In this document: piece after piece, positions 6,301-53,719 of the stretch
Layout: the number at the start of each line of letters is the position of its first letter
Numbering within the stretch: position 1 is the first letter of the stretch
Source of the DNA: a virus
Lineage: Duplodnaviria > Caudoviricetes
IMG/VR virus record: IMGVR_UViG_3300025704_000035
Coordinates: 1-53,719 of that record
DNA: 53,719 nt
Strand: one strand, 5' to 3'
Notes under the pieces: model-generated
Database searches by the model: none
Told to the model about the DNA's origin: nothing
Seen by the model: only the letters and a program-made list of their open reading frames with translations
Program-made: the position numbers and the translations under genes

Positions 6301-8932
6301 CGCTATCTGATCTAGCTGGGGTAGGCTGAACTGCCTCGAGGCTTCCGGACTCTGGCGGTGCCCGAACTTGTCCTGATATTCCTGAAGGTTGGGTGGTGTT
6401 TTGGGGGCTGACACTACTCGACGGTTCATCTTGTACCTCTGCCTGTGCAGTCTGTAAGTTTTTGTCACGTATATCTTTTATGTAATTATACGCCTGTGGA
6501 GCAAATTCTTGTAGTTGTTTTGGGTTGCTGTGAAACATTGCCCCAAGCTGAGCAAAGACCTCTTCTCTATATGTGGTGTTTAAACTCTGGTTATCCTGCT
6601 CAAGATCAGCAATGTCTATTTTTAGATCATTAAAAGGATAGTCAAAGCGTTTCCCGAGGTCTGTTCCTTTCTCCCAATTATCATAGATCTCTTCCATGAT
6701 ATCGCCCATAACAACCGTTGGTGCCTCAGCATCGTCTTCAATTGTTATATCGAACCGCGAGTCTTTATCACTTAATCCGTAAGCATAGTCTGCCGCATGG
6801 TAAACCTCATGGGTCATTGTCCATGCTAACTCACGCAACTGTTCTTGATCTGTCATAGCGCCGTCAATCAACTGCGTGTTAACAGATATTCCTCTGCTAC
6901 CTTTTCCTGTAAGAGCTGGTGCAGTTACATCCTGATCCGTATGAACAAACACACCTGAAACTGCATCTACAAATGACGTGGGAACACCCTGTGCTGACAG
7001 GTCAGCCATCACACCACCTATGGTGTTTGTCACTGCCTCTGACTTATCACCGTATACCTCTTCAACTGTTGGTAAGCTTTTACCTTTTGGTTTAGCGGCA
7101 GTTCCAATTTTAAGGGTTTCGTTTCTATCGAAAACTCGGTCAATGTCGTCTTGATCAATTGGCTCAACCACAACATCGGTATTGTTTGGGTCTAGTGCTT
7201 CAGGAGTTTGCGCTACTCTTGACACCTCTAGAAGCTGATCTTGCACAGGGGTAGATGCATCTGTAAGTGAAGCATCCCACTTATGCTCGTGACCATACTC
7301 TCGAGCGCCTTCTGGCACCTCTCTAGCACCAAGTACTGGAGCTGATGGAGAATCACCCACCTCATCCGCAACCGGTTCCTGAATAACGCTCTGCTCTTCT
7401 ACTACCGTGTTAGCTTGTTGAGTGTCGCCATCGCCAAGATTTATCGAGCCACTATTGCTAGGCTCTGTGTAGGTTATGGATAGATCATCACCCTTGCCTA
7501 AATCAACGTTTAGGTTTGCAGGGTTGAAGTCATCTCCGTACTGAATCTTTAGCTGTTCAGTCGCCTGATCTATGTTTTGTTGTTGGACAGGATTTGGAGT
7601 CTGCTCTATAACTGACACACCTGTTACACGACCATCAGAATCTACTGTGGAAATTGTTGTTCCGTCATTATATTTGTTAAAGGTGTCTGCAATGTACTGT
7701 CTTCGTTCTTGCGGTGTAGCGTCTGGGGTTACATCGCGCATAGCGTCGAAGTTTGGAGCATTATCCAACTGATCGTATCCGCCTCTAGCTTTTTTAACAG
7801 AAGCAGAGGCAGTGCCTATGGCTTTACCACCCATAACGCCTGCCGCAACGCTATTAATTAATCCACTTCGTTTGTTCTCGTTTGCAATGTAGTCCATATA
7901 CTCAATTGCTTCTTTCTCTGTGAAGTTGTTATTCACATAAGCAACTGTTTCCTGCTCGACAATAAACTGAAGACCCTCTGTCATACCCTCTATGCCACTG
8001 ACCTTTCCAATGTCTTTAAGATATTCTTTGACCCAAGGCTTGTTTACTCCCGCCTGTAAAACCTCAATTGCTTCGCCTCTCAGGTTCGCAGGAATCATGT
8101 TTTCTAAAACTTTAAAGGCAGGAATTGCGTTTAGTCCACCCTGAACAAGACCTGAGGTTAAGGAGATGAAAGGCGCCTCTTCACCGGTATCTGTCAATAC
8201 CTTCGCAAATGTATTACCTGAACCCTGCGCGGTACCATAAACTACAGCACCGGCTGTTCCGGCTTTTAGAGATATCTGTTTTAGTTTAGCTTCCGCGAAC
8301 TTTTCAGCAACATCTGCGGCTACCTTATCCGCCGCCTCTTTTTCAAATCCGTCTTTAACAAGCTGATCTCTTCCGTTCTGCACATACTTATCAGCAAGCT
8401 TTTTAATTGATGCTTTAGCGCCTGCTTTTGCAATAGCTGATCCGGCGCCCATAGTTCCAACAGCACCAACTAAATCTGGAACCAGTGTACCTAAGGTATA
8501 TGCTGACCATGCCCCAAAATCTGCAATGCTGTTAATATCCTCAACCTTCATTACATCACCGGCTGATTCCTTGGCTTCAGCAGTTTGCTCTTGGTAGTAA
8601 GCCATACCCTCCTTGACCCACTCTTCTTTGCCAAACGCTGAGCCTGCTAAGGCTTTTAAGCCCCCGCCTAATGCTTGCGTTTGATCTATGCCGGCGCTTA
8701 GACCGCGAGTAAAGTTGTTAGGTTGACCGTCAAGCTGTGGAGCTTGATCAGGTTCACGAGTATAGGTTCCCGATAAAGGATCTGAGTTATCGGCGGATGT
8801 AGGGTCCGTAATGGGATCTGGGTTCAGTGCAGGATCTAGAGTTTCTGTTGGCGACTGGGCACCTTCCAGCTCCTCATAGACGTCCTCGTAATACCCTTGC
8901 TTTGAATACAGCTTTACCGAATTAAGTGGCAT
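1..8932 (-). CDS. Giant polyvalent / ejected internal virion protein, 5' part (~3,077 aa including the continuation to 53051)
   Basis: ATG at 8932 (MPLNSVKLYSK...). Spot translations along the region stay in one frame, which matches the 53051-53680 ORF across the junction (9,234 nt, divisible by 3). It is absent from the ORF track, consistent with no stop before the edge. Motifs: HEVYH zincin, HhH-like, GNAT-like, LPD38-like C-terminus (MLINYNPSWGLINP, DLTVNFNRKG). Confidence 0.88.
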   Translation of the reverse strand, partial: MPLNSVKLYSKQGYYEDVYEELEGAQSPTETLDPALNPDPITDPTSADNSDPLSGTYTREPDQAPQLDGQPNNFTRGLSAGIDQTQALGGGLKALAGSAFGKEEWVKEGMAYYQEQTAEAKESAGDVMKVEDINSIADFGAWSAYTLGTLVPDLVGAVGTMGAGSAIAKAGAKASIKKLADKYVQNGRDQLVKDGFEKEAADKVAADVAEKFAEAKLKQISLKAGTAGAVVYGTAQGSGNTFAKVLTDTGEEAPFISLTSGLVQGGLNAIPAFKVLENMIPANLRGEAIEVLQAGVNKPWVKEYLKDIGKVSGIEGMTEGLQFIVEQETVAYVNNNFTEKEAIEYMDYIANENKRSGLINSVAAGVMGGKAIGTASASVKKARGGYDQLDNAPNFDAMRDVTPDATPQERRQYIADTFNKYNDGTTISTVDSDGRVTGVSVIEQTPNPVQQQNIDQATEQLKIQYGDDFNPANLNVDLGKGDDLSITYTEPSNSGSINLGDGDTQQANTVVEEQSVIQEPVADEVGDSPSAPVLGAREVPEGAREYGHEHKWDASLTDASTPVQDQLLEVSRVAQTPEALDPNNTDVVVEPIDQDDIDRVFDRNETLKIGTAAKPKGKSLPTVEEVYGDKSEAVTNTIGGVMADLSAQGVPTSFVDAVSGVFVHTDQDVTAPALTGKGSRGISVNTQLIDGAMTDQEQLRELAWTMTHEVYHAADYAYGLSDKDSRFDITIEDDAEAPTVVMGDIMEEIYDNWEKGTDLGKRFDYPFNDLKIDIADLEQDNQSLNTTYREEVFAQLGAMFHSNPKQLQEFAPQAYNYIKDIRDKNLQTAQAEVQDEPSSSVSPQNTTQPSGISGQVRAPPESGSLEAVQPTPARSDSEGSASQERADTSMERSEQDEGGERERPEVQEPVVAEEPRTEVTLKPHSKKPRFKKSENYEDTGEYLVAFPDGDRYRVYYDDYAAEVGDATELESLDGKVEYLGETKNDAIQAIVDHRAKLIEAGEKSYNTPLDPLVSKDTVTDAWSFIADKEGATEKTLRKKFKRLEDNQFENLKEQLLDKDVEAEDLVVMNGDKFIQQDILNEIEQEQEAKLVEQELGDLDDDADLIDDDLSDLDDMGFIKKGAEYLLEDSKGDVSDKKQVPVKKLNPKNAEESIRRLQTIIDSNPNALSSTDAWRSFERSLTGQNTHLAPPYGLINLFNNMDGWVDRHSQLTTEQRLAAKNGLDTAKRMGELYANGVATPDTTAKLLLWGLLSRRLTASSQEAAYVDLVTGTEMTQDLIQKTLNGTIDANDKGKWIAEVKTAIPEGSFGKSATSNANDFFPLLMKMSEQVDGVSKLQNLHNTLADSSIPSFEVRRQFQAQVQGSGIDNKVFSFMMLMMGRDDVVILDRIQLNSMWDSGRYGKLIYDDIADEFSGFHGLARYEALENALQTKITDLYKGLGREQDASVGRYHWESWVLNSGQVVAHPTMQGLEKDAKGEDSPYAFLGAPEGKGDLYRFGAIYARDEDTNPYILYSKSNGDVYKFSTKQFGDFLKEVKKSKNGVIPKGFKVTDYDKGSPWYEAEQVDRQKLDALVESNAERKAVEREYAPERATDYDATDISGQRRRIATYNRLRGSRGVQGDGRGNQGGLPRRFRARPSGYAQVDLDGQTFNAYKRELEPSVAQDLASVDSYSRTVLELESTPETVKFFSDKIKASKESSRFGASVYVYPESDYQDMTLYVTDDGTAGLALRNGDEIVSLFSDGTNPNTTYALGSLAIEDGAKYLDAFDTTLPYIYKNLGFEAVSRIKWDDSQAPDGWDKKTFAMFKGGEPDVVFMRHNPEYFGKYSREDGVVAESYDDAVKIQRGGEERIRPEQNRINQTMKDAVQSRIDRDITAEELNQVFEDQGRFVAPMTADMVPELPSEQKFVNALKKTNREKPNTPTKETYWKADVLEHGVRYGSRLDIPSYNSKTLAKDERADIVTVHVSRPNAKAGSAGKRLGYYPTIRLKNGVFAVPEKGAVKIALGADKNTIATMEGDYVGQKEDGTALTHEQNVADFKKFVKDPEWTQVSMNPERHSFYYDLEKQQPVESFSEAIQVGNLVIVKDAKYADVEDFAFIKKKQINKELNKLDDGSPSTSQFSYNDEIDSQSDLVRRLKDKAIYRSLVDRYARLEDFEMQAAEYLNVGRLPAAISPRDQENLSHGRVQTDLDNFHAEFVDPLGDVIAELGYTVDAVDTYLIAKHAEERNDVIAEKVAAQRAKNIARTEQAIAKLEEDAGVDHSVQIANLREKLKQYNDLPLAFQDTGSGMTYVEARKVLKIAEQEGTQADLERIASMVYEMHDAARSRMVESGLLDQASKEDWEDTFRFYVPLKGFAAEADGDQFVRASKARGYSVVGSESLKARGRKTLPMSPLMQSFEDIQKKIIRARKNEYAQTLLDLLSELGNSDSYTIYNNKFRPMKDSDELTQQDLKEMERDTRPNGEPKYVQVKKGGQTFFVEFKSDALNHSLQNMSVDAFDRSNSAMDKALTLATRFQTFRRNMLINYNPSWGLINPIRDVQTGLMYALGEMDKNGSRIQGENIIGKMAEGYFPAMRTLYRHYRGKDVAAKMGDEMQKYILEYIEDGAPTGMMLVRDTDEQMRILKNKMKRGLARQAAKALGKWVEDFNVTTENAIRFSAYIEARKAGAPREDAATLAKDLTVNFNRKGESTAVVNAGYLFFNAAVQGNVNIAQALSDDGKGKGEKGTTTARQAAMGMVAIGVALAAWNILSSEDDEDDENRYADLPEHAKNRSLLFMYNDEEGFALPASYGYNFFTNIGRLATEVSLGVSTMDETAVHLWENFLLNFVPVAPSAGDNWEDAARGFYPDLLELHLDMMANKNFFGSDIYIEQNPLFVERANAYNSRRSTDKMFTVPAEFLNDATGGDKYRDGSMSINPDKMQYAYEYFLGGLGRFGSQTTDIAGRMLSDEDYRKQDLPLVGGFFESPSDYADRFEFYENWEET

Positions 8933-35577: not shown

Positions 35578-36030
35578 CTAGTGTAAGTCCTTGTTTTCCT
35601 TGAAGATATCCTCATCAAACTCTTCTTCAACAGCTTCTTCTAGGTCTAAATCAGCTAAAAACGCCCCATGAAAGCTTGTAACCTCCTGCTTTTCTGGCGC
35701 AAATCCGCCTACCACCTTAATCAGCAGTTCTAATGCCCTAACACGGGTTCCTGACTGATCTGCCTCCATGCTTTCACTTTCAAGCTGACTCACGTAACGA
35801 GCCAACCTATCCTCACCATCACTCATGATTTGTCTCCTTTCAGCCTCTATAGCCGCCTTTACACTAATATTATCTAACAGACGGAATGCCTGCACATTTG
35901 GGTGAGCGTAGCCTGCAAGGTGTGCTGATCTGGTTGCATTACCTGTTGCTACGTACTCTGTGACGAATCGAAGCTGTCTCATGTTCAGGGCTTTGTTATC
36001 CCTTACTGGTGCATTGCTCTCTACTGTCAT
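35578..36030 (-). CDS. terS: Terminase small subunit
   Basis: RQLRFVTEY...GNATRSA..AGY HTH motif; RALELL. Confidence 0.85.
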   Translation of the reverse strand: MTVESNAPVRDNKALNMRQLRFVTEYVATGNATRSAHLAGYAHPNVQAFRLLDNISVKAAIEAERRQIMSDGEDRLARYVSQLESESMEADQSGTRVRALELLIKVVGGFAPEKQEVTSFHGAFLADLDLEEAVEEEFDEDIFKENKDLH

Positions 36031-36086
36031 TGTTTACTTCTCCCTATGGGAATATGGACGTGGGGGGTTTTGGTTTTTTCCCCGCC

Positions 36087-36371
36087 CTAGAAAAAATTCT
36101 TAACTACTGCGCTCAGTCCTACTGAGAATGCTACCCAGAACATCCTCTCACTGATGCGGCTCTTACTCTCTGTCTCGATTATCGATTTCTCGATCTCACG
36201 CTGATTCGACTCTAAGGTATCAAGCCTGCGTTCGTGGCGGTCTGTTCTTTTATGGCTACTGATCATCCGCTCATCTAAGCGTTTAAGTTCTGACAATGTC
36301 TTGGTGACTTCATCTAACTTTGACTCTAGGCGATCAAATCTGGTGTCTATGTTCAAAGTATCTGCGCTCAT
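36087..36371 (-). CDS. Coiled-coil protein with C-terminal membrane anchor (holin/XhlA-like)
   Basis: RFDRLESKLD heptads; C-terminal hydrophobic helix; start at MSADTL. Confidence 0.5.
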   Translation of the reverse strand: MSADTLNIDTRFDRLESKLDEVTKTLSELKRLDERMISSHKRTDRHERRLDTLESNQREIEKSIIETESKSRISERMFWVAFSVGLSAVVKNFF

Positions 36372-36466
36372 TTGTAAGTGGTTGGTTTCATTAAGAAATA
36401 TGTCTGTAAGTATATCTTTTAATCTATACAGACACAAAATAATTTCAATTAATTATAAAATATATC

Positions 36467-36496
36467 TTGACAGATTATTTTCTGCACCTGTATATT
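36467..36496 (+). promoter_or_regulatory. Sigma70-type promoter of the rightward operon
   Basis: TTGACA (36467-72), 18-bp spacer, TATATT (36491-96); AT-rich UP-like region upstream. Confidence 0.7.
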
Positions 36497-36499
36497 AGT

Positions 36500-36826
36500 T
36501 GGCAAGTGCTCAAACGGCACTTCGGATACGAGGTCTCCGACATGACCTGCCACCTTCGGGTGAACACGAAAGCTTCGGCGAGTAGTGGTCTTCAAAGCAC
36601 AGCGGTTGGGTGCGAGTCGGGACAGAGCCCCTGCCGCTCTTCAAAGGTGCACGGTTGGAGATAGTGAAAGCCAGAATGAGTTCTGAGCGAGTAGCGAGCC
36701 TCCTGCAAGGAACGCAATCAAACGACCGACTGGGTGGGCTACCTACCTAGGAAAGCTACGGCGAGTACGACCCAGTCGAGTTGATTTGATAGAGCCGCCA
36801 CGTTGGAGGTTCTACAAAATCAATTC
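36500..36826 (+). ncRNA. Candidate structured leader RNA, family unknown
   Basis: GC-rich, no convincing CDS; UUCG/UACG tetraloops; three GAAAGC..GCGAGUA modules; 9-bp stem 36727-35/36770-78; long hairpin 36778-36826. Confidence 0.65.
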
Positions 36827-36845
36827 TTACCCTGAGGAGGGCACC

Positions 36846-37019
36846 ATGGATATTCAAGTAGAAATAAAAAGCATTTACGGTCAAGAAAAGATCTACCCAC
36901 TATGCCTAGCAGGCGAGACATTCGCTCAGATAGCAGGCACCAAAACATTAACCACTGAGACTATCGCACTGGCTAAGCGCCTAGGCTATCAATTCATTAT
37001 TAAACAACGGGGGATCTGA
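36846..37019 (+). CDS. Small hypothetical protein
   Basis: MDIQVEIKSIYGQEKIYP..., directly after CCTGAGGAGG. Confidence 0.75.
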   Translation: MDIQVEIKSIYGQEKIYPLCLAGETFAQIAGTKTLTTETIALAKRLGYQFIIKQRGI

Positions 37020-37021
37020 TC

Positions 37022-37252
37022 ATGACTACACATAAAGAACGAGCGTTTAAGTTAGCGGATGAGATAGACGCACTGCATAGCAAACTAGAAGAGCATGTTG
37101 AAGATTTACGGCTCGAATGGGCAGACGATAAATTCGATGACGAGTACCCAATCTGGGACTCAGAAGATGCTCAATGCTACTTAGAGAAGGCGGTTGACTT
37201 AATCAAGCGCTACTACACGAACGAATCATTATTTAGGCGGCAGATCCCCTGA
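37022..37252 (+). CDS. Small acidic hypothetical protein
   Basis: 76-aa ORF with GGGGG SD-like sequence. Confidence 0.65.
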   Translation: MTTHKERAFKLADEIDALHSKLEEHVEDLRLEWADDKFDDEYPIWDSEDAQCYLEKAVDLIKRYYTNESLFRRQIP

Positions 37253-37271
37253 AAAGGGAAGCCTAAGCATA

Positions 37272-37332
37272 CTCAACTGATGAGGCTAGCGGGGGTTAGC
37301 CGAAACAGCCCTTCGGGGTTGTCTTGAGACCC
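37272..37332 (+). ncRNA. Type I hammerhead ribozyme HH1 (predicted cleavage after C37323, GUC)
   Basis: Stem I CUCAA/UUGAG; CUGAUGA; stem II GGCUAGC/GUUAGCC; GAAA; stem III CAGCCC-UUCG-GGGUUG; G-rich loop II can pair with 3' CCC. Confidence 0.93.
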
Positions 37333-37361
37333 ATATAATTAATCCTGAGGAGGATAACAAC

Positions 37362-38240
37362 ATGGCTAAATTTGAAGATATTTTTCAAGAAGTTACAGAC
37401 CGAATCATTGATGGTTTGGAAAATGCTGATGACTGGCGCAAGCCTTGGAAATCACTGTTCGATGGTTCAGTACCGCATAACGCATCTACTGGCAGACCAT
37501 ATAGCGGTGTGAATTTCCTTAACCTATCGTGGGCATCCAAGAAATGGGGTGCTTCTGGTTGGGTTACCTACAAGCAGGCGCAAGCCCTTGGCGGTAAGGT
37601 TCCCAGTAAAAGCGCATCAAACGGGGGCTGTGAGTATGTTTGGTTCATGGCTCGCAGTGTCTATAAAGATAAGCAGACTGGTGACGATAAAGTCGGCTTT
37701 ATAAACAAATGCTTCTCAGTCTGGAATGTTAACCAGATCGAATGGGAAGAAGGCAGTAAACCTTACAGAGAATACACCCCACCAGTATCTGGTACGGGTG
37801 CAGTCAATGTACTGGCTGAGAGCCTAGATATTGATCTGCAATATCAGGGTGATGTTGCATGCTTCATCCCTTCAGTAGATGTTATCAAGATGCCTTCTGC
37901 TGAGGCGTTCAAAACCCCTGAAGACCATGACGCCACACTGGCTCATGAGTTAGTGCACTGGACTGGTCATAAAGACCGACTCAACAGAAAGATCCTGAAC
38001 AGCAAGGGTGGTGAAGATTACGCCTTTGAGGAACTGGTCGCTGAGTTGGGTGCGGCTTTTGCAGGCTCCCTACTAGGTATTCCCTACGAGGGGCTACAGC
38101 ATGAGAAGTACATCAAGAGTTGGCTTAAGGCGTTAAAGAATGATCCTAAACATATCGTAAAGGCATCTGCTCAAGCGTCCAAAGCTGTTAACTATCTTAA
38201 TGATAACGGCTCCCTACAGATTGTAGACATAGCCGCATAG
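37362..38240 (+). CDS. ardC: ArdC-like antirestriction protein (ssDNA-binding domain plus zincin metallopeptidase)
   Basis: W.KPW, N..TGRPYSGVN, W.TYKQA..LGG, HELVHWTGH..RL.R, YAFEELVAELGAAF, YI.SWL..L. Confidence 0.9.
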   Translation: MAKFEDIFQEVTDRIIDGLENADDWRKPWKSLFDGSVPHNASTGRPYSGVNFLNLSWASKKWGASGWVTYKQAQALGGKVPSKSASNGGCEYVWFMARSVYKDKQTGDDKVGFINKCFSVWNVNQIEWEEGSKPYREYTPPVSGTGAVNVLAESLDIDLQYQGDVACFIPSVDVIKMPSAEAFKTPEDHDATLAHELVHWTGHKDRLNRKILNSKGGEDYAFEELVAELGAAFAGSLLGIPYEGLQHEKYIKSWLKALKNDPKHIVKASAQASKAVNYLNDNGSLQIVDIAA

Positions 38241-38241
38241 G

Positions 38242-38279
38242 TTGGGGGGTGTTGGGTTTTTCCCGCGCCCCAATTTTTT
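38242..38279 (+). terminator. Possible weak terminator hairpin after ardC
   Basis: TTGGGG...CCCCAA imperfect stem followed by a T run. Confidence 0.4.
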
Positions 38280-38295
38280 ACCTGAGGAGGTAATC

Positions 38296-38451
38296 ATGAC
38301 TGAAGATCAACTGATACAAAACGTTAAAAACGTAATCCTTGAGTGGGCGTTCGAGGAGATCGAAGAAAACCCTGACAGCGACATTACCTTGGAGGATCGG
38401 TACTGCCAGAACAGGGATTCAATACTTGACGTCCTGAAAGAAAAGCTCTAG
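38296..38451 (+). CDS. Small acidic hypothetical protein
   Basis: ATG after CCTGAGGAGG; stop TAG is part of HH2 stem I. Confidence 0.7.
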   Translation: MTEDQLIQNVKNVILEWAFEEIEENPDSDITLEDRYCQNRDSILDVLKEKL

Positions 38452-38511
38452 CTGATGAGTACTGGGTAGTGCCCAGTCGAAACACTGGTTCGCCAGTGTC
38501 CTAGATAACTA
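38447..38511 (+). ncRNA. Type I hammerhead ribozyme HH2 (cleavage after C38500, GUC)
   Basis: Stem I UCUAG/CUAGA; CUGAUGA; stem II G(U)ACUGGG/CCCAGUC; GAAA; stem III CACUGG-UUCG-CCAGUG; loop UAGU pairs with 3' ACUA. Confidence 0.93.
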
Positions 38512-38530
38512 ATCCTGAGGAGGATCTATC

Positions 38531-38938
38531 ATGGCTACATTGCAACAGAAAAACATCCACCCTGCACTGTCCCTGACTTGGGATTTATTGACAGACCCTG
38601 TGATCAACCCTACACGCAAAGCGAGACTGCGTCAGGATGCACGGCGCTATCAATACAGCGACCGCCTAGCTACTCGCATTGAACTCAATCAACACATTGA
38701 GTACTGCAAGACCGCAGACGGTTTTATTTATATCGAGAACTTCTCTCGAGACTGTGACAACTGCGAACGTACATGGGTAGAGAAGATACCCGCTCACATC
38801 ACAGCCCTCACGGTACACGAGAACCGACTGCAAAAAAACGCAGAGGGGATCACCTACTGCTCCCTGATCACTAAAGCGCAAGCAAACAAATTCAAACCCT
38901 CATTTCGTGATCGTAACGCAGAGCGTGGCTGGTACTAA
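38531..38938 (+). CDS. Hypothetical protein with CxxC
   Basis: 135 aa; SD hairpin upstream. Confidence 0.75.
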   Translation: MATLQQKNIHPALSLTWDLLTDPVINPTRKARLRQDARRYQYSDRLATRIELNQHIEYCKTADGFIYIENFSRDCDNCERTWVEKIPAHITALTVHENRLQKNAEGITYCSLITKAQANKFKPSFRDRNAERGWY

Positions 38939-38949
38939 CTTTATACTAA

Positions 38950-39012
38950 TCCAACTGATGAGACTAGATAGTTACTGGTCGAAACACCCCCTGTGGGTGT
39001 CTTGGAAAACTA
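38950..39012 (+). ncRNA. Type I hammerhead ribozyme HH3 (cleavage after C39001, GUC)
   Basis: Stem I UCCAA/UUGGA; CUGAUGA; stem II GACUAG/CUGGUC; GAAA; stem III CACCC/GGGUG; loop UAGUU pairs with 3' AACUA. Confidence 0.93.
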
Positions 39013-39034
39013 ATAAGACCTGAGGAGGTTAATC

Positions 39035-39577
39035 ATGAGCAATTCCAAATTTCACTTAGATAAAAATGCAATCCATTTGCTTAAAGAGTGCAACGAGTTG
39101 GCATGGCGTATGTCTGGTCGGGTCGAAGAACTTTTTAACGACTTGCATGGCACGTCAGTACCCCGCTCTGTTAGAGATGAGATTGAGATTCTTGAGCAGT
39201 ACCTAAACAAGGTAATCAATCAGACCACAGAAGCCCTAGACGCTGATCGTGAGATTGACGGTGAGTGTGTCCATGCTTACTGCCCTAACCCAACCAACAT
39301 AGAAGCCTATGGCTTAAAGGTTGAGAGGTATCTGCCCAGTAACTGGGAGGTATCAGATATAACACCTGACACTGTTTATATTCGTGGTCATAACACCTGC
39401 CGCACTGATGGAGAGCGTGAGTTCGAGCACTACTTACAGCCACGGCTAACGTCAGGCTTGATTCACTCTGTGCTTGCAACCGCTGAAGAAGTAGCGAAGC
39501 GTGCCCAAGGTGAGCGAGACAATCTTGAGGATGGGTGGGTTCAAACAAACGACATAAGGCACCAGTTACCGTGTTAA
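39035..39577 (+). CDS. Hypothetical protein
   Basis: 180 aa; SD hairpin upstream; bracketed by HH3 and HH4. Confidence 0.75.
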   Translation: MSNSKFHLDKNAIHLLKECNELAWRMSGRVEELFNDLHGTSVPRSVRDEIEILEQYLNKVINQTTEALDADREIDGECVHAYCPNPTNIEAYGLKVERYLPSNWEVSDITPDTVYIRGHNTCRTDGEREFEHYLQPRLTSGLIHSVLATAEEVAKRAQGERDNLEDGWVQTNDIRHQLPC

Positions 39578-39578
39578 A

Positions 39579-39640
39579 TCCAACTGATGATCGCAGTTAG
39601 TTACTGCGTGAAACACCCTTCGGGGTGTATTGGAAAACTA
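39579..39640 (+). ncRNA. Type I hammerhead ribozyme HH4 (cleavage after A39629, GUA)
   Basis: Stem I UCCAA/UUGGA; CUGAUGA; stem II CGCAGU/ACUGCG with U-U at the base; GAAA; stem III CACCC-UUCG-GGGUG; loop UAGUU pairs with 3' AACUA. Confidence 0.88.
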
Positions 39641-39658
39641 AACCTGAGGAGGTTGTAT

Positions 39659-39946
39659 ATGTATTTCATAACTAAACTAAACGGCGATCGAGTGCCCAGT
39701 CGATATGGTCTGGTGCATTACGTGAGTCTGTCCAGACTGTGTGACTATAGCTACCCTAACGTTAAGGATGGCATAAGCTATCTGGTATATAAGAGTGAAT
39801 TAGATCGCAGTGATGGCAAAGCCCATGGCGTCTATGTTACTGAGGGCGGAAAGTTGGTGCGCGATAAACGCAGATCAGCATTACGCAAAATACACGATCT
39901 ATTCAGGGGGCGCAGTATCGATGAAATTACCTACGCCCCACTTTGA
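39659..39946 (+). CDS. Hypothetical protein
   Basis: Start at MYFITKL after CCTGAGGAGG; the track's longer start lies inside HH4. Confidence 0.72.
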   Translation: MYFITKLNGDRVPSRYGLVHYVSLSRLCDYSYPNVKDGISYLVYKSELDRSDGKAHGVYVTEGGKLVRDKRRSALRKIHDLFRGRSIDEITYAPL

Positions 39947-40136
39947 CATTAACACTATGCTTCACCGCAAGGTGCGGTATGTCCTACAGAAACCTGACGC
40001 CCTGCATGATGCCCTGCTACAAATTGTAACTTTGGGCAAATCGGATTGGGATCAGCAAGAGTGGGACGCACTGGTTGCCGATATCGAATCATCCGACCTT
40101 ACAGTTGGTGAATACATCAAGCCCTACAGAACCTGA
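39921..40136 (+). CDS. Hypothetical protein
   Basis: MKLPTPHF...; stop TGA lies inside the next CCTGAGGAGG. Confidence 0.6.
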   Translation: MKLPTPHFDINTMLHRKVRYVLQKPDALHDALLQIVTLGKSDWDQQEWDALVADIESSDLTVGEYIKPYRT

Positions 40137-40147
40137 GGAGGTTAACC

Positions 40148-40390
40148 ATGGCTTATTACATTAGCAAGCTAGACCCTATAGATGGATCAGTATCACCGTT
40201 CGCTAGAGTAGTCAAACGATTATGTGATGCAAAACATCTAGCTGACGATGAGGTGTGTGCGGTATTCAAAAACCGCAGAGACTTCTCTGAAAAGTGGATC
40301 TACAAAACCTATGTGTCGCAGAACGGTAAACTTAAACCCGTGACAAGACATGACATCCCGAAACAAATCGGAAATCTGTTTTCTCTCTAG
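40148..40390 (+). CDS. Hypothetical protein
   Basis: 80 aa; stop TAG is part of HH5 stem I. Confidence 0.72.
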   Translation: MAYYISKLDPIDGSVSPFARVVKRLCDAKHLADDEVCAVFKNRRDFSEKWIYKTYVSQNGKLKPVTRHDIPKQIGNLFSL

Positions 40391-40445
40391 CTGATGAGCA
40401 CTGGATGGTTACCAGTCGAAACGCCGTGAGGCGTCCTAGAAAACC
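40386..40445 (+). ncRNA. Type I hammerhead ribozyme HH5 (cleavage after C40435, GUC)
   Basis: Stem I UCUAG/CUAGA; CUGAUGA; stem II G(C)ACUGG/CCAGUC; GAAA; stem III CGCC-GUGA-GGCG; loop GGUU pairs with 3' AACC. Confidence 0.93.
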
Positions 40446-40487
40446 GTTACAATTGCGTGTATATTAATTTCCTGAGGAGGATACATT

Positions 40488-40793
40488 ATGAAACAAGCAC
40501 ACTTACACCTTATTCAATGGGGTTTAGATCAGGGCTACATCATCGAGGTAGACATCGAGGGTGAGGCTGAGTATCGAGGCAAAAGCTACAAAGAAGCAAA
40601 AGATGCTAGCGAAGCGGGTGAGACAGGCTGTATATACCTAATTACTGGCACGGGTGATACAGATTATGCGTGGTTTGGATATCTTCACGACTACGACCAG
40701 AAGCCCGATGAAAAGATTTACGACTATGGCATTTGTGCCGTATCTGAATCGTGGCAGAAAGCCTACGACCAACACTGCTCTCAAGCCGCATAA
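40488..40793 (+). CDS. Hypothetical protein
   Basis: 101 aa; SD hairpin upstream. Confidence 0.75.
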   Translation: MKQAHLHLIQWGLDQGYIIEVDIEGEAEYRGKSYKEAKDASEAGETGCIYLITGTGDTDYAWFGYLHDYDQKPDEKIYDYGICAVSESWQKAYDQHCSQAA

Positions 40794-40820
40794 CCACCCC
40801 CACAATAAGTAACCACCATA

Positions 40821-40843
40821 AAGCCACCTTCGGGTGGTTTTTT
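40821..40843 (+). terminator. Intrinsic terminator
   Basis: AAGCCACC-TTCG-GGTGGTTT followed by a T run. Confidence 0.8.
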
Positions 40844-40888
40844 AGTGCTTATTTAATTATCAAAAACCAATATCCTGAGGAGGATTTT

Positions 40889-41224
40889 ATGAGTTTATAT
40901 TTAGTAAAAAGTGAAGTACGCGATGGTGGTTATGAATACCATGACAAGTTTATCCTGCTAGCAAGTAGCGGCGGAATATCGCTCGAACTACCTCAAAACA
41001 TCAATGCAATTTTGACGGCATGGGAGTTTGGGTTGACTGTCAAACATGTTGAAGAGTCAGGTGATGAGGTTTGGGCTGACTGTCGGCTGGTTTATTGCAA
41101 CACCTGCGGAACCATATCAAATGAAAACTACAACGTCATTAAAGAATACCTGAACGTGATTAATCTTGAGTACATTTTAGGTGATGTCGAATATGGCGAT
41201 GAGCGTGATCAGGAGGTGGCGTAA
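40889..41224 (+). CDS. Hypothetical protein
   Basis: Start MSLYLVK after CCTGAGGAGG. Confidence 0.72.
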   Translation: MSLYLVKSEVRDGGYEYHDKFILLASSGGISLELPQNINAILTAWEFGLTVKHVEESGDEVWADCRLVYCNTCGTISNENYNVIKEYLNVINLEYILGDVEYGDERDQEVA

Positions 41225-41391
41225 TGGATAACCCATTTGCAGATATCGCCCAGTGGGAGCGCTACTGGGATATGAGCGACCTTGAACGTGTCCGTGAGGA
41301 TGAGCAGGAGCAGAAAAAGAAAGAAGCGACCGAGCAAAAATGGGCTAATCGCTTTAAGTTAGGTATTCAAGACGAATGCGAACAATACTAG
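41224..41391 (+). CDS. 55-aa hypothetical protein (below the ORF-track cutoff)
   Basis: MDNPFADIAQWERYWDMSDL...; TAATG coupling and AGGAGG SD. Confidence 0.65.
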   Translation: MDNPFADIAQWERYWDMSDLERVREDEQEQKKKEATEQKWANRFKLGIQDECEQY

Positions 41392-41399
41392 GAGGTGCT

Positions 41400-41588
41400 A
41401 TGCCTATATATCAAGTAACAACTAAAGAGGTCTGCCTTAACACCTATGAGGTGGCGGCTAGATCCAAGGAAGATGCTATCAGCTCTTATTATGAGCAGTT
41501 GAACTCGCGTCAAATAAAAAGCGTTAGCAGTGATGAGAGTGTTATTTCAACACTTGAAGTATTTCCAACTGATGAGTTGTCGAGGTAG
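41400..41588 (+). CDS. Small hypothetical protein; last codons overlap HH6
   Basis: MPIYQVTTKE... with AGGAGG SD; PTDELSR* is encoded by the hammerhead core. Confidence 0.65.
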   Translation: MPIYQVTTKEVCLNTYEVAARSKEDAISSYYEQLNSRQIKSVSSDESVISTLEVFPTDELSR

Positions 41589-41662
41589 TCCCTCGATCGA
41601 AAGTCTAAGTACACAATAGGTAATCTTTTTTACCCTTTGTGTATTTGACTCTTGGATAACTA
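41564..41662 (+). ncRNA. Type I hammerhead ribozyme HH6 with extended stem III (cleavage after C41651, CUC)
   Basis: Stem I UCCAA/UUGGA; CUGAUGA; stem II GUCGAGG/CCUCGAU; GAAA; stem III GUC/GAC plus AAGUACACAA/UUGUGUAUUU plus GGUAA/UUACC; loop UAGU pairs with 3' ACUA. Confidence 0.85.
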
Positions 41663-41682
41663 AAAAACCTGAGGAGGTTTAT

Positions 41683-42135
41683 ATGTCTAACAATAATGTT
41701 TATTTAAGAAGTAAAAAGGTTAAAAGAATTGGCGGGAAGGATATTGTTTTGTTCTCTCATGCCTACAATCATGAGGTATCTGTCTTAGCTAAAGAGAAGT
41801 ACTACGGCAGTGAATCGCATTATGACCGAGTGGTAAATCAGCGTGAAAATAAAGCTATGAAATACTGCGAAACACAGAAAGATATAGGGTATATGGTTCT
41901 GTGTGACAACTGGACTAGTATTGGGTTGCATTACGATTTATCAAAACCATGCTTAAACCCAGTTTATATAATAGAGCCTCATGACTACTACATTCGCGAG
42001 GGCACTCAACTTCCACCTATTGCAGGCTTTGTTTCCCGTAGTGGTTATCAGTACCGTTTTATAGCTTTTGAAGATGCCTGTGAACCTTGGAAGCAAAAAT
42101 ACCCAGAGCAGATTAAAAGAAATGCTTTCACCTAA
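41683..42135 (+). CDS. Hypothetical protein
   Basis: 150 aa; SD hairpin upstream. Confidence 0.75.
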   Translation: MSNNNVYLRSKKVKRIGGKDIVLFSHAYNHEVSVLAKEKYYGSESHYDRVVNQRENKAMKYCETQKDIGYMVLCDNWTSIGLHYDLSKPCLNPVYIIEPHDYYIREGTQLPPIAGFVSRSGYQYRFIAFEDACEPWKQKYPEQIKRNAFT

Positions 42136-42258
42136 TACTAAAGTATTAGTACCTAATGGCTATGTATTAATGAATCATTTGTACGTATATTCTTCACCCA
42201 AAGGAATTGGCACTCTTTCGACATGGATGTTCTCTTAATTTCATTTAAAGGAAATAGG

Positions 42259-42642
42259 ATGAACCTTAATGACAGTAAAATTGAAAAAGACCCTCGATAT
42301 CTAGTCGCGGTTGCTTTGTTACGACTAGCAAAAACGTCAAAACAAAAAAAGGTATTAAGAAAAATGCTCAAGCAACATCAGGGCTTTGACTTTCTTGCAT
42401 ATAAGCAACACATCAAAAAAGAGATAGATGAAAAAAGCGCGGGCGGTAAAATAATTGTTCACGCATGGAGCCTTGAAGATACATTGCAGGGCTGTCCCTC
42501 AACCAAAAAACTGCCAGCAACAGTAGTTGCTTATTTAAGATTTGCTAGATCAGCTAAAGGCAAGTCTGTAATTATTAACCCCCCGTCTTTGACAGTTCGT
42601 CAAACGACTTTTACAGAGACTAATCTTCAAAGCGTAGTATAA
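42259..42642 (+). CDS. Hypothetical basic protein
   Basis: Start at MNLNDSK (AAGGA SD). Confidence 0.6.
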   Translation: MNLNDSKIEKDPRYLVAVALLRLAKTSKQKKVLRKMLKQHQGFDFLAYKQHIKKEIDEKSAGGKIIVHAWSLEDTLQGCPSTKKLPATVVAYLRFARSAKGKSVIINPPSLTVRQTTFTETNLQSVV

Positions 42643-42736
42643 AGGTGACGGCTCACCTGAGGAGGGTATAGGCACAGGGAATACAGTGCCGAGCCGCCGC
42701 CCCTATCATAACCCTACAGTACCCACGGAGTAAAGA

Positions 42737-42916
42737 ATGCAAAGGTATGAATGCCTTTGCTGTCAATTTGCGGGTGATCGTGATGAATTCATAATCGAAG
42801 AATGCGTGGATCTGGAGCCTTACGGCGATCGGAGCGTCCCGCGCACATCCTACACTTTTAACTGCCCTAAATGCGACAGCGATAACGTTGACGAAGAATG
42901 GCGTGCGCCATTTTAA
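42737..42916 (+). CDS. 59-aa Zn-ribbon protein (below the ORF-track cutoff)
   Basis: MQRYECLCCQF...FNCPKCDSDNV; GGAG SD. Confidence 0.7.
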   Translation: MQRYECLCCQFAGDRDEFIIEECVDLEPYGDRSVPRTSYTFNCPKCDSDNVDEEWRAPF

Positions 42917-42937
42917 AAAACAATACAGGAGGTGCAT

Positions 42938-43291
42938 ATGCACTTATATAAAAAAATGCTCGAAGTTAGTAATATTCCCGAAACAAGATCCTTACCATTA
43001 GCAGAAGCCCTAAAAAGTTTGCATTCTGCTATCTGTGCTTTAGACCAAGAGAACAGAGTGCGCTTCGGGTTCATTAACCCAGAAGCAGTTGAAGCCGCAA
43101 TAAGCTACGCCTTAACGGAAGACCTCAATGCTGAACTTTGGGGCTCTGACGAAAAGGTTTCCGTCATGATGGATAATCAATCTATTAGTGATAGTTTCTA
43201 TATTGAATTTACGCCTGACTGTTTCGATGAAGAGGGTAAATCAGAAAAAGAAGGAGCGGTAATTAACATGGAGGACTACAGGAAAGAATGA
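42938..43291 (+). CDS. Hypothetical acidic protein
   Basis: AGGAGG SD before the ATG. Confidence 0.65.
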   Translation: MHLYKKMLEVSNIPETRSLPLAEALKSLHSAICALDQENRVRFGFINPEAVEAAISYALTEDLNAELWGSDEKVSVMMDNQSISDSFYIEFTPDCFDEEGKSEKEGAVINMEDYRKE

Positions 43292-43488
43292 AAACAAATG
43301 ATCAGCTAATAAATTTAGCCAAGGAATCAGGGTTAACTATCAAAGAGATATCCGAACTGATAGAGACCCCTTATGGAACTGTAAAAAACTGGACTCGAGG
43401 AAAGGAATCCCCAAGCTATAGAGAAATGCCTAGGCACGCACTCATTGCCGCTCGATACTGTATCGAAGCAAAGCTTGCCGAGGAATAA
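43288..43488 (+). CDS. Small HTH DNA-binding protein (Cro/XRE-like)
   Basis: GLTIKEISELIETPYGTVKNWTRG helix-turn-helix. Confidence 0.75.
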   Translation: MKTNDQLINLAKESGLTIKEISELIETPYGTVKNWTRGKESPSYREMPRHALIAARYCIEAKLAEE

Positions 43489-43864
43489 GAAATACCCACT
43501 TTGGATACCTGTCCGTAGTACCAGTAATGCGGACGGGCTCCAACCCTTCAACTAGAATACACTCCAGTATTCCCTCTCGCGTAAACCAATACTCCCCATC
43601 CCCTAAATCAAAGAACCAAAAGTCAGCTTCAGATACAGAAAATGCACTAGGTTTTCTATGGAAATACTCCACAACAACATTGCCAGTCTTAATTGACATA
43701 GGGTCGTATTTAACCTCTATGGTTTGATTGATCTCAGGCACCCTTATATCCCACTCGGGATGATTGCCGATCGCTCTTACAGAACTGGGGAATGTCGTTT
43801 TTAGGCGTTCTAGCAACCCTTCCTCGACCCTTCCACCTCTCTTTAAATCTTCCTTAAATCCCAC
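43442..43864 (-). CDS. PD-(D/E)XK nuclease-like protein
   Basis: WDI..IEVKYD..TGNV.VEY..PS....ADFW. Confidence 0.7.
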   Translation of the reverse strand: MGFKEDLKRGGRVEEGLLERLKTTFPSSVRAIGNHPEWDIRVPEINQTIEVKYDPMSIKTGNVVVEYFHRKPSAFSVSEADFWFFDLGDGEYWFTREGILECILVEGLEPVRITGTTDRYPKWVFLIPRQALLRYSIERQ

Positions 43865-49299: not shown

Positions 49300-50327
49300 G
49301 TTTAGCTGTCCAAGGTTCTCCCGAGTGGCATAGAGCCAGAGCGGGCAAGATTAAAGCCTCTGTATGTGCCGCCCTTGAGGGTAAGCACAAATATATGAAG
49401 TCAAAAGACTTGGTTCGTCAGGAAGTTAGAGCCCTAGCAGGCTCTGAATCTGAATTTAAGATGGTACCGGCTGTAGCGCACGGTCAGGTTATGGAAGATA
49501 CCGCTCGTATCTTTCTCGAAAAGACTCAAGGATATACCGTTGAAGAGACAGGGCTAGTTGTTCACCCTAAGTATGACTTCTTAGCCGCAAGCCCCGATGG
49601 TTTGGTGGGTTTGGACGGGTGCGTTGAAATTAAGTGCCCTTACCCGCAATACACCAAGCAACCCTACTCTGTTTTCGATCCTGCAAAGTCTGTTTATTTG
49701 TGGCAGGTATACATGCAGATGGAGGTTCTTGACGCTGACTGGTGTGACTTTATCTGCTATCTAGCTAATAACGAGACCAGTGAGCCGCAGTTTACTATTG
49801 AAAGGGTTGAGCGCAAGCAGGACTTTCTGACCGAACTTGTCAGTAGAAAGTACATGCCTCAGCCTGAGAAGGGAACCATATCTAGACTTGATTTATATCA
49901 GGCTTGGCACCGATGGATCGCTGAACAGCATAGTGACCCTGTAACGCGCAAGCTACACACCGATGCCATTGAGGCAGAGAGCGCTGAGGTCGTAACTAAT
50001 GATGAAGATCTTAACTCCTTAACAAAAATTCAAAACCGGATACATGAAATAAAAGACCGTATTTCGGACGAGCTAGAAATTCTAGACATTCTTTCCACCA
50101 ACTCAATCGACCTAAAGAAAAGCATTGCTGGTCGTTTTGATTCAAGCGTTTCTAATGGAAAGACAACAGTCAGGATAACAAGCAAGACTCCACCCATAGA
50201 CTACAGAAAGGCATTTGAGTTTCTAGGTGGCGAGGACGAAGTCCTCAACAAAGACGAGAGTATCGATTCCTTCAGAAGGACTACCGGTACTAAGCAAGTA
50301 ACGATCTTACATGGAGATCAACTATGA
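49296..50327 (+). CDS. YqaJ / lambda-exonuclease-family recombinase
   Basis: QGSPEW..RAGKI.AS, HG..ME..A, ASPDGL, EIKCP, Q...QM. Confidence 0.9.
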   Translation: MSLAVQGSPEWHRARAGKIKASVCAALEGKHKYMKSKDLVRQEVRALAGSESEFKMVPAVAHGQVMEDTARIFLEKTQGYTVEETGLVVHPKYDFLAASPDGLVGLDGCVEIKCPYPQYTKQPYSVFDPAKSVYLWQVYMQMEVLDADWCDFICYLANNETSEPQFTIERVERKQDFLTELVSRKYMPQPEKGTISRLDLYQAWHRWIAEQHSDPVTRKLHTDAIEAESAEVVTNDEDLNSLTKIQNRIHEIKDRISDELEILDILSTNSIDLKKSIAGRFDSSVSNGKTTVRITSKTPPIDYRKAFEFLGGEDEVLNKDESIDSFRRTTGTKQVTILHGDQL

Positions 50328-50689
50328 AAACCCCAACAGCGTTTGAAAGCCTGAAAGCAGGAAAGGGTCGTTTGTACCCGATGGATAAAGAAAAGAGAAT
50401 AGCGGAATGGAATCGCTTAAAGCAGTACGAATGGGCAACTAAGGCACATGTGCCCAAGTTCGAAGGTTATATAAAGATTAATCAGGATGTTATCGACGAA
50501 ATGACCCTTGCAATGAATGCACAGGGTGGCGAGTTCCGATACAACCTAAAAGTTTGTGAGCAGATGGGTGACGATGGCGAGCTGAAGCAGTTCAACATTG
50601 ATTACTGGGTGCCAACCAAACCAGCGAAGTCAAAGCCAGTAGAAAGTGCGCCTGCCGATGACTTTTTAGATGATGATGTACCATTTTAA
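50324..50689 (+). CDS. Putative ssDNA-binding protein
   Basis: Acidic C-terminal tail DDFLDDDVPF; P.F.G.I motif; follows the SSAP and exonuclease. Confidence 0.6.
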   Translation: MKTPTAFESLKAGKGRLYPMDKEKRIAEWNRLKQYEWATKAHVPKFEGYIKINQDVIDEMTLAMNAQGGEFRYNLKVCEQMGDDGELKQFNIDYWVPTKPAKSKPVESAPADDFLDDDVPF

Positions 50690-50699: not shown

Positions 50700-51089
50700 A
50701 TGCCACTAAGAATCACCCGTGCCGTTGACTCGGTACTGTATGGCGGGTGGGATCTAGACCCCTCGGATTTAGAGGGGTCATGTGACCATCGAATTTGGGT
50801 GAGGAGGGTTAGGGACACAGACAAGCATCAGGATGCGTTGATAAACATTGAGTCACAGCAAGGAGTGACTGAAGAGATTATAAATATTGACGAGCCAATG
50901 ATGGTTGATCACGGAATAGAGTTAAAGATGGTTGGGGTACAGCGCTATCACCTCAAACCCGAAAAGCACTGCAAGGTTTGTGATCGAGGAGATCACTTTA
51001 AATCAAAGCATATTCCGCAGGCACGCATAGCAGTCGATGCCCCGCGTGAATACGAAGTCATCAGGCATGACGCTAGGAAGAAAAGATGA
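50700..51089 (+). CDS. Divergent CsrA/RsmA-like RNA-binding protein
   Basis: N-terminal LRITRAVDSVL and C-terminal QARIAVDAPREYEVIR resemble CsrA LILTRRVGETL and QVRIGVNAPKEVSVHR; about twice the length of CsrA, with a CxxC insert. Confidence 0.5.
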   Translation: MPLRITRAVDSVLYGGWDLDPSDLEGSCDHRIWVRRVRDTDKHQDALINIESQQGVTEEIINIDEPMMVDHGIELKMVGVQRYHLKPEKHCKVCDRGDHFKSKHIPQARIAVDAPREYEVIRHDARKKR

Positions 51090-53050: not shown

Positions 53051-53719
53051 CTACTTCCCCTCAGCCTTTCGGTATGCCTTGTTAAAGATATCAAAGATCT
53101 TGTTTTCATTAACTTCAAGCTCTTCAAGTAACTTTCTTCTTTTCTCCTCTCCTAATGAGCCGGCACCGTAGTTCTGTTTCTCAACCATTTTTCTTGTTTT
53201 AGAGATCCTTCTAAGGTCTCTGTTTGCCAGCTCGTAAAGATTCTTACCGTTATACTTGGGGTTAAGTAGCGGGATGAAATCTTTAAACTCTGTCTGAAGT
53301 CTAGCCACTTCCGTCACGTCTGTAGCTTCTTTAAATCTAGTTACAATTTTACGGGTCTCTTCCCAGTTCTCGTAAAACTCGAATCGGTCTGCATAATCTG
53401 AGGGCGACTCAAAGAAACCACCAACTAACGGGAGGTCTTGCTTACGGTAGTCTTCATCCGAAAGCATACGACCTGCAATATCAGTTGTCTGGCTACCAAA
53501 TCGACCCAAGCCGCCAAGGAAATACTCATAAGCATATTGCATCTTATCTGGATTGATAGATATGGATCCATCTCGGTACTTATCACCCCCAGTAGCATCG
53601 TTGAGGAACTCAGCCGGAACAGTAAACATCTTGTCGGTTGATCTTCGAGAGTTATAAGCATTGGCTCGGTCAACAAACAACGGGTTTTGCTCTATGTAGA
53701 TATCACTGCCAAAGAAGTT
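53051..53719 (-). CDS. C-terminal part of the giant polyvalent protein (continues from 1-8932)
   Basis: Same frame as 1-8932 through the terminal overlap; stop at 53051. Confidence 0.88.
   Translation of the reverse strand, partial: NFFGSDIYIEQNPLFVDRANAYNSRRSTDKMFTVPAEFLNDATGGDKYRDGSISINPDKMQYAYEYFLGGLGRFGSQTTDIAGRMLSDEDYRKQDLPLVGGFFESPSDYADRFEFYENWEETRKIVTRFKEATDVTEVARLQTEFKDFIPLLNPKYNGKNLYELANRDLRRISKTRKMVEKQNYGAGSLGEEKRRKLLEELEVNENKIFDIFNKAYRKAEGK
53353..53719. repeat. Terminal direct repeat, right copy
   Basis: Matches 1-367 with 9 substitutions. Confidence 0.97.

Follow-up and report, generated by a model that had tools for sequence, protein, structure and literature searches.

Proteins of the CsrA family repress translation from Shine–Dalgarno (SD) sites held in short RNA hairpins. 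They bind GGA in the loops of hairpins, mostly with stems of at most 4 pairs and often over an SD; in psl, a hairpin of SD and anti-SD is clamped by RsmA, and residues L4 and R44 of CsrA are critical for binding (PMC7652899). Homologues of csrA have been reported in 30 of 2517 phage genomes, with their role left open (Sobrero and Valverde 2020, PMC7366521). Repeated elements between phage genes are also on record. Clusters of hammerhead ribozymes that flank single genes or small blocks, ardA included, have been known in prophages since 2011 (Perreault et al. 2011, PMC3088659), and the PeSL cassettes of T4-type phages are repeated small regulatory units between non-essential early ORFans (Arbiol et al. 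2010, PMC2839356). Here we describe a repeated hairpin that encloses the SD of ten early genes in an uncultured marine phage, IMG/VR virus record IMGVR_UViG_3300025704_000035 (53,719 bp, CheckV 100%), which was analysed whole and is called the window below. Selection maintains the hairpin, which may also serve as an operator for Csr-type control.

A Shine–Dalgarno hairpin repeated in an early operon

The 10-mer CCTGAGGAGG occurs 11 times in the window, all on the + strand between 36831 and 42665 in a 6-kb early operon, with no reverse copies. By shuffling, 0.07 copies are expected and none of 100 shuffles reached 11 (the maximum was 2), which bears out the original prediction, made from the DNA letters, of 11 copies in 6 kb. 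Counted over the complete genome, late genes included, the 10-mer has no copy outside the early operon. Ten of the 11 copies sit 5–8 nucleotides (nt) upstream of an ATG, while the eleventh (42656) lacks one. The copies are listed below.

36830–36841, + strand: SD hairpin 1 (CCCU GAGG AGGG), ATG at 36846
37342–37355, + strand: SD hairpin 2 (AUCCU GAGG AGGAU), before the ArdC-like gene 37362–38240 (ArdC domains)
38278–38293, + strand: SD hairpin 3 (UUACCU GAGG AGGUAA), ATG at 38296
38512–38525, + strand: SD hairpin 4 (AUCCU GAGG AGGAU), ATG at 38531
39017–39030, + strand: SD hairpin 5 (GACCU GAGG AGGUU), ATG at 39035
39641–39654, + strand: SD hairpin 6 (AACCU GAGG AGGUU), ATG at 39659
40130–40143, + strand: SD hairpin 7 (AACCU GAGG AGGUU), ATG at 40148
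40470–40481, + strand: SD hairpin 8 (UCCU GAGG AGGA), ATG at 40488
40872–40885, + strand: SD hairpin 9 (AUCCU GAGG AGGAU), ATG at 40889
41665–41680, + strand: SD hairpin 10 (AAACCU GAGG AGGUUU), ATG at 41683
42656–42665, + strand: orphan eleventh copy without ATG, in the internal loop of a larger stem

Beyond the constant CCU/AGG, the flanks of the ten copies add 1, 2, 3, 2, 2, 2, 2, 1, 2 and 3 pairs; the list of flank pairs drawn up in the original prediction was correct. The sum of 20 compares with 8.5 ± 3.3 pairs for permuted 3′ flanks and was reached in 7 of 20000 permutations; composition-matched random flanks reached it in 17 of 20000, and slid registers gave 3–15 extra pairs. Folded in isolation, the ten hairpins have free energies from −4.0 to −6.0 kcal/mol. 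In a 90-nt context the CCU/AGG pair probability is at least 0.7 in eight of the ten copies and 0.5 and 0.04 in the other two, the value of 0.04 coming from a copy where the excised segment cut into the upstream terminator.

Each of these ten copies serves one early gene, initiated independently, as its ribosome binding site. The last three bases of the extended SD UGAGGAGG are locked to the upstream CCU, with one to three pairs of free choice added, and at about −6 kcal/mol the hairpin has the stability to form and can still be opened by the 30S subunit. With 4–6 stem pairs, a free energy of about −6 kcal/mol and the SD inside, these elements have the form of a short hairpin over the SD that is found at CsrA-type sites. 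Eight positions of UGAGGAGG can presumably pair with the 3′ end of 16S rRNA, one of them as G·U; the hairpin is then required only to account for the flank pairs and the two C. The earlier argument that anti-SD pairing leaves the conserved CC and the covariation unexplained is thus upheld. Among the matches listed in a literature search, the 10-mer appeared only in primers or unrelated uses.

Tightly coupled downstream genes carry a plain GGAGGUG site in place of the hairpin. A second conserved ribosome site, GGAGGUGGCGU(G/A)AUG, is found on such genes, with the upstream stop overlapping the start (41209–41226; also in the related loci L037, L068 and L078). At hairpin 7, the UGA of the 10-mer (40134–40136) is the stop codon of the open reading frame (ORF) 39813–40136, an arrangement that recurs in contigs L101, L105, L106 and L107. 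The orphan copy belongs to a stem-loop between two genes (42640–42700), in which CGGCUC...GAGCCG surrounds a GGCAC/GUGCC hairpin; it is kept only in the near-identical contig L103.

Covariation and bounded stability across relatives

A terminase search gave 80 related loci, and the motif was counted in 79 of them (L010–L088). Sixteen of the 79 loci contain the 10-mer, with 53 copies in total; as in the window, all of them lie opposite to the terminase, and the terminase strand has none. Each distinct GAGGAGG with an ATG 3–10 nt downstream was taken as a site, which gave 132 contexts from the window phage and its relatives, 113 of them with a preceding CCU.

The fourth stem pair is standard in 111 of the 113 CCU sites and takes varied forms (G-C 49, A-U 29, U-A 20, C-G 8 and wobble 5). 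The covariation score of the alignment (A1) is 0.252 against 0.081 ± 0.009 for shuffles, none of 500 reaching it, and slid registers gave at most 0.093. Kinship among sequences can beat shuffle controls; this explanation is disfavoured here by the slid control and by the occurrence of four pair types. Both the claim of an RNA hairpin embedding the SD and the expectation that the flanks covary across homologues hold up on these numbers.

The constant part of the stem varies in concert as well. At positions 1 and 10 of 149 N-CUGAGGAG-N sites before an ATG, the pairs are C-G 124, U-A 16, U·G 2 and A-U 1; the six remaining sites are unpaired, and five of these represent one conserved antisense coding site. 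Twelve of the 16 switches to U-A come from a single relative, L013. All 12 hairpin sites of L013 have the U-A version (AAUCU GAGG AGAUU), and the SD is weakened to GGAGA in each copy. A 14-mer scan for this variant was uninformative, with single matches only among the matches listed.

Stem length is adjusted to stem composition. A fifth pair is present in 44 of the 49 sites with A-U or U-A as fourth pair and in 4 of the 57 with G-C or C-G; within the 12 single sources in which both kinds occur, the counts are 33 of 35 and 4 of 33 (Fisher 1.6e-12). The free energy of the sites is −5.87 ± 0.91 kcal/mol, compared with −3.97 ± 1.71 for permuted flanks. Stability is therefore bounded on both sides and held near −6 kcal/mol.

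Ribozymes, terminators and moving cassettes

Upstream of many hairpins lies an element that separates the gene from the one before it. Six sites in the window have the features of type I hammerhead ribozymes, with CUGANGA, GAAA and UH cores, three stems and stem I open, and two further separators resemble terminators.

37272–37328, + strand: hammerhead 1 (type I), predicted cleavage after 37323; core and three stems, sub-threshold Rfam match, consensus fold
38447–38505, + strand: hammerhead 2, predicted cleavage after 38500; core and stems, sub-threshold Rfam match, consensus fold
38950–39006, + strand: hammerhead 3, predicted cleavage after 39001; core and stems, Rfam Hammerhead_1 at 23.8 bits, E 0.03 (gathering score 34), consensus fold
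39579–39634, + strand: hammerhead 4 (GUA cleavage triplet), predicted cleavage after 39629; core and stems, consensus fold
40386–40440, + strand: hammerhead 5, predicted cleavage after 40435; core and stems, consensus fold
41564–41656, + strand: hammerhead 6 with a long stem III, predicted cleavage after 41651; core and stems, outside the consensus alignment
38241–38279, + strand: terminator-like GC hairpin and T run, separator before hairpin 3; from sequence
40824–40843, + strand: intrinsic-terminator-like hairpin (CCACC uucg GGUGG, then U6), separator before hairpin 9; from sequence

At the gathering threshold Rfam gave no match in the window, the hammerheads falling below the cut-off (best 23.8 against 34 bits), and it gave nothing useful in five GC-rich loci. 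The consensus fold of eight hammerheads (five from the window and three from relatives) has the three expected stems, with compensatory changes in 12 of 16 pairs. A reading of CUGAGGAG itself as a ribozyme core (Rfam Hammerhead_II, 18.8 bits, E 4.8) was rejected, as there is no stem I hairpin there.

Predicted cleavage would leave 13–35 nt between the new 5′ end and the 10-mer. Among 112 hairpin sites, 55 have a hammerhead core in the 75 nt upstream, a T run precedes 11 and neither is seen at 46; some of the 46 have a variant hammerhead, or a stop codon and then a stem-loop. Sites without a hammerhead core come after terminator-like hairpins or fall within the end of the preceding ORF. Conversely, 74 of 92 distinct contexts downstream of hammerheads hold the motif within 90 nt. 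Since separator types differ among sites, the hairpin is the constant part and the separator the variable part.

Whole cassettes of ribozyme, hairpin and ORF are gained and lost between relatives. Contig L107 has one additional unit (hammerhead, hairpin and an 80-aa ORF) flanked by two near-identical hammerheads, and L101 lacks 40446–40864, with the junction immediately before hairpin 9. The proposal that ribozyme and hairpin form a standard expression cassette therefore stands as regards the repeated cassette (L107, L101) and fails as regards the ribozyme, which is not obligatory (55 of 112 sites). This gain and loss of genes between repeats resembles that of PeSL cassettes; an early promoter for each cassette was not found, and the operon has one strong promoter.

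36467–36496, + strand: sigma-70-like early promoter (TTGACA, 18 nt, TATATT), by consensus match only

It agrees with the consensus at 11 of 12 positions and is the best site within 36000–43600, where the count of promoter-like sites is not above that of shuffles.

Wider spread of the motif

A combined pattern of hammerhead and motif matched only 27 stretches of IMG/VR. A 15-base scan with GCCTGAGGAGGC..ATG gave mostly single matches and served only to locate multi-copy loci. Other uncultured lineages with a GC content of 0.50–0.60 have 3–8 copies each (L145, L220, L134, L157, L177 and L124). In L145, L220, L134, L157 and L177, the copies follow promoters or other hairpins, not hammerheads, and the fourth position pairs in 17 of 18 unselected copies (count from the listing). 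The five are unrelated-looking fragments with the 10-mer before early-looking genes, some copies being directly behind sigma-70-like promoters; L145 and L157 have in common a repeated upstream element (..GGGACUGUGAGC..GCUCAC..). Compared with named phages, L145 had no DNA match and L134 only trivial ones.

The complete relative G011 (L440) carries no CCUGAGGAGG and has a related architecture. On its − strand (about 2200–4950 of the reverse strand), three hammerheads are each followed by a 4–5-bp hairpin before an ATG. These hairpins (GACC-, GAUC- and GUCC-AACAGGA) have covarying stems and an invariant AACAGGA loop which is much closer to the CsrA consensus than the GAGG loop. G011 also encodes a homologue of the protein described next.

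A probable CsrA-like protein encoded in the same genome

Late in the window a small gene encodes a candidate trans-acting partner of the hairpins.

50700–51089, + strand: 129-aa protein with a CsrA-like C-terminal domain containing a CxxC insertion; from Pfam, hhalign and Foldseek

The Pfam family CsrA (PF02599) matches this product at 16.5 bits, below the gathering cut-off of 27. Homologues are present in all five near-complete relatives, and 91 IMG/VR stretches encode a relative of the protein; CsrA is the sole Pfam family matched repeatedly, in 12 of 32 homologues, each below threshold (best E 4.1e-5). By hhalign against E. coli CsrA (probability 58%, E 1e-4), residues 65–125 align with CsrA 9–46 across a 23-residue CxxC insertion, and CsrA R44 falls on R122, an invariant residue of the family alignment.

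With a model of residues 53–129 (pLDDT 78.7), the top 12 Foldseek matches were all CsrA, RsmA or RsmE chains (probability 0.90–1.00, E 0.07–0.9), and the next unrelated match had a probability of 0.14. VIA-align of the full-length model gave a Z of only 4.1–4.5 to RsmA and RsmN. A tblastn search against named phages yielded chance matches only, and ESM Atlas matches scored below 0.9 and are leads only. The product thus likely contains a CsrA-like domain. Conservation of a probable CsrA-domain protein across this phage clade is new here, and the 129-aa protein is far more divergent than the phage csrA homologues on record.

No conserved hairpin was found upstream of the CsrA-like gene. The gene directly before it (50324–50689) encodes a product ending in DDDVPF, a tail kept in relatives, which we take to be the acidic tail typical of single-stranded DNA-binding (SSB) proteins.

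Possible modes of action

Because the phage clade encodes a probable CsrA-domain protein, the translational operator suggested in the original prediction is now a concrete hypothesis. We tentatively prefer to see the hairpins as a ribosome-site operator shared for class-wide Csr-type control, and put the chance of this a little below even. The hairpin would then act as a shared operator besides being a ribosome binding site: a CsrA-type RNA-binding protein would bind GGA at the 3′ edge of the loop and clamp the stem. The most likely binder would be the phage's own candidate CsrA-domain protein (50700–51089), host CsrA being possible too. Clamping would turn down the whole early accessory set together, including the ArdC-like anti-restriction gene and the ORFans, while the upstream hammerheads or terminator-like hairpins would separate the cassettes. 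Stem length, bounded stability, overlap with the SD, early-only use and the AACAGGA hairpins of G011 appear to fit CsrA-type control.

A number of results weigh against Csr-type control. The loop GAGG (hexaloop UGAGGA if the U-A pair opens) mismatches the ANGGAN and ACA..GGA consensus, and in the lowest-energy fold only two G of GGA are in the tetraloop, the A being paired with U3. Each CsrA signal of the 129-aa protein falls short of the curated or customary threshold (Pfam 16.5 against 27 bits, Foldseek E 0.07); its full-length model had no Foldseek match, and the sequence had neither a match in the PDB nor a BLASTP alignment to E. coli CsrA. The CsrA-like gene is located in a replication/recombination module, after the SSB-like gene. 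Four of five further records that encode a homologue, G011 (100% complete) and three that are 66–83% complete, do not contain YCUGAGGAGR; neither the CsrA-like gene nor a match to the CsrA model was found in five fragments of GC-rich lineages, which are 16–36% complete and uninformative on this point. The CsrA-like protein could act on host RNAs instead.

The strongest alternative, which we hold to be a substantial possibility, is that the element is a purely cis-acting, standardised ribosome site: a strong SD, partly locked by local pairing, would impose the same moderate unfolding cost on each gene shuffled in. The SD would not be trapped by ribozyme or coding sequence, and the element would be a natural counterpart of ribozyme-plus-hairpin insulators with no dedicated protein. 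The narrow, bounded free energy speaks for it. So does the opening energy from −18 to +13, which is 8.9 ± 1.8 for the 10 hairpin genes and 9.8 ± 3.75 for 51 others, a comparison set whose gene starts are crude. Placement of the hairpins at free-standing starts, with GGAGGUG at coupled genes, reuse of the identical 10-mer by lineages differing in GC, and distant relatives that vary the loop (UAAGGA, GAGGA, AACAGGA) and keep the architecture all suit a cis-acting site, and RiboJ combines a ribozyme with a downstream hairpin that is said to expose the ribosome binding site (PMC6206723). Left unexplained are the absence of the hairpin from late genes, including the capsid gene, the orphan copy without a gene and the choice of G over the better-pairing A before AGGAGG in 46 of 47 CCU sites.

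Improbable, in our estimate, is a link to a sequence-specific endoribonuclease that would inactivate early messages by acting at their SD, in the manner of T4 RegB at GG/AG; the hairpin would either mark the site for this enzyme or shield it. The early-only SD does contain GGAG, and RegB cleaves early SDs, an activity that secondary structure blocks (PMC3014915). Against this, no RegB-like or other RNase family was found among the ORFs scanned, and the 3′ A-rich consensus of RegB is not conserved, because those bases covary with the 5′ flank. Slightly less probable again is conservation mainly as a recombination junction, with repeated cassette ends permitting gene swaps as in the PeSL cassettes of T4-type phages (PMC2839356). 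The extra unit of L107 and the deletion junction of L101 agree with such a role, which accounts for sequence identity and not for compensatory changes or bounded stability; moreover, the ribozyme repeats flanking the indels measure 60 nt, beside which the 10-mer is short. Very unlikely are a classical 5′-terminal stabilising hairpin, as the original prediction had offered, given the 13–35 nt that precede the 10-mer after ribozyme cleavage (even though some GC-rich lineages have a promoter 7–26 nt upstream, so that the hairpin may be near the 5′ end), and a DNA-level protein site, opposed by G-U pairs, all four pair types, strict strandedness and the fixed distance to ATG.

Csr-type control, if correct, may be taken a step further, to a proposal that we consider doubtful. 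The clade would run its own Csr-like circuit, in which the viral CsrA-domain protein reads about ten GGA hairpins and times the shut-off of anti-defence and take-over genes; or, conversely, the early multi-hairpin RNA would soak up host CsrA as CsrB does. Ribozyme cutting would make each cassette a separately controllable message.

The genome and its early operon

The genome encodes a terminase, portal, capsid, tail fibres, a primase-helicase, a Sak/RecE-type recombination pair and an integrase; no tRNA genes were found in it. The closest terminase of a named phage is only 35% identical, and the early region had no DNA match among named phages. A single match in genome_contigs, a 7.5-kb contig binned in a Flavobacteriales metagenome-assembled genome, is too weak for naming a host.

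Genes with the hairpin form a single operon downstream of the near-consensus promoter at 36467–36496. It contains the ArdC-like anti-restriction gene and small ORFs, for which no Pfam or PHROG family was matched. Late genes have a weak SD or none (by crude gene calls). The promoter is followed by a leader of about 330 nt.

36498–36829, + strand: long leader RNA before the first hairpin, 3′ domain conserved and structured; from an alignment of nine relatives

In the nine relatives the 3′ domain of this leader has compensatory pairs, ACUGGG/CCCAGU alternating with AUCAGG/CCUGAU, and UUGAUUUG...AAAUCAA frames a variable covarying hairpin. Rfam gave no match to the leader at E up to 10.

Four metatranscriptome runs (X19–X22) have contigs near-identical to parts of the early region 36400–42700; as contigs they do not let ends, strand or processing be read, and uncovered parts carry no meaning. 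Two contigs of run X20 (depth 196 and 123) match ribozyme and hairpin modules only and then continue into the sequence of a relative.

Elsewhere in the window, an ORF of more than 2977 aa on the − strand (2–8932) encodes a polyvalent protein (LPD38) and continues past the end of the record; 53051–53719 (− strand) encodes the tail of the same LPD38 domain. The record is probably circularly permuted, with a polyvalent gene of about 3200 aa. Residues 771–820 of the ORF have a sub-threshold match to the metalloprotease-type Pfam family ATLF (19.6 against 27.4 bits). A reading of the hairpins as N4-type DNA-hairpin promoters was dropped because the giant ORF is this polyvalent protein and not an RNA polymerase.

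Comparison with known systems

A candidate regulator and a candidate target set are present in one 54-kb genome, so that a viral Csr-type circuit could be tested directly in vitro. Independently of the mode of control, the hairpin is a natural, evolution-tuned part (ribozyme, leader and SD in a hairpin of about −6 kcal/mol) that gives unrelated genes a uniform start. It is relevant both to the way in which phages fit new accessory genes into an early operon and to the engineering of insulated parts for gene expression.

The CsrA/RsmA leaders of hcnA, glgC and psl similarly have a short hairpin of at most 4–5 pairs over the SD with GGA at the loop (PMC7652899). They differ from the present hairpins in the loop, which here is GAGG or UGAGGA and not ANGGAN, and in number, as 10–11 copies stand here in one viral operon; the candidate binder, too, would be a viral, rearranged CsrA-domain protein. 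For the phage csrA alleles described previously, the part of the survey drawn on here names no phage mRNA targets (PMC7366521), while the genome described here contains a candidate target set.

In the hammerhead clusters of prophages an anti-restriction gene is likewise flanked, ardA there and the ArdC-like gene here; the sections of that report consulted make no mention of an SD element (PMC3088659), whereas here a conserved SD hairpin follows the ribozymes. The synthetic insulator RiboJ also places a self-cleaving ribozyme and then a hairpin just upstream of a gene and yields a uniform 5′ leader (PMC6206723). Its hairpin precedes the ribosome binding site; here the SD is within the hairpin and the element is natural. 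As in PeSL cassettes, whole genes are gained or lost between repeats (PMC2839356); a PeSL consists of a promoter and a terminator, and the present cassette of a ribozyme or terminator and an SD hairpin, with a single promoter. Finally, as with T4 RegB, an early-specific form of the SD would permit class-wide shut-off (PMC3014915), although no nuclease was found among the ORFs scanned here and the target in this phage is structured.

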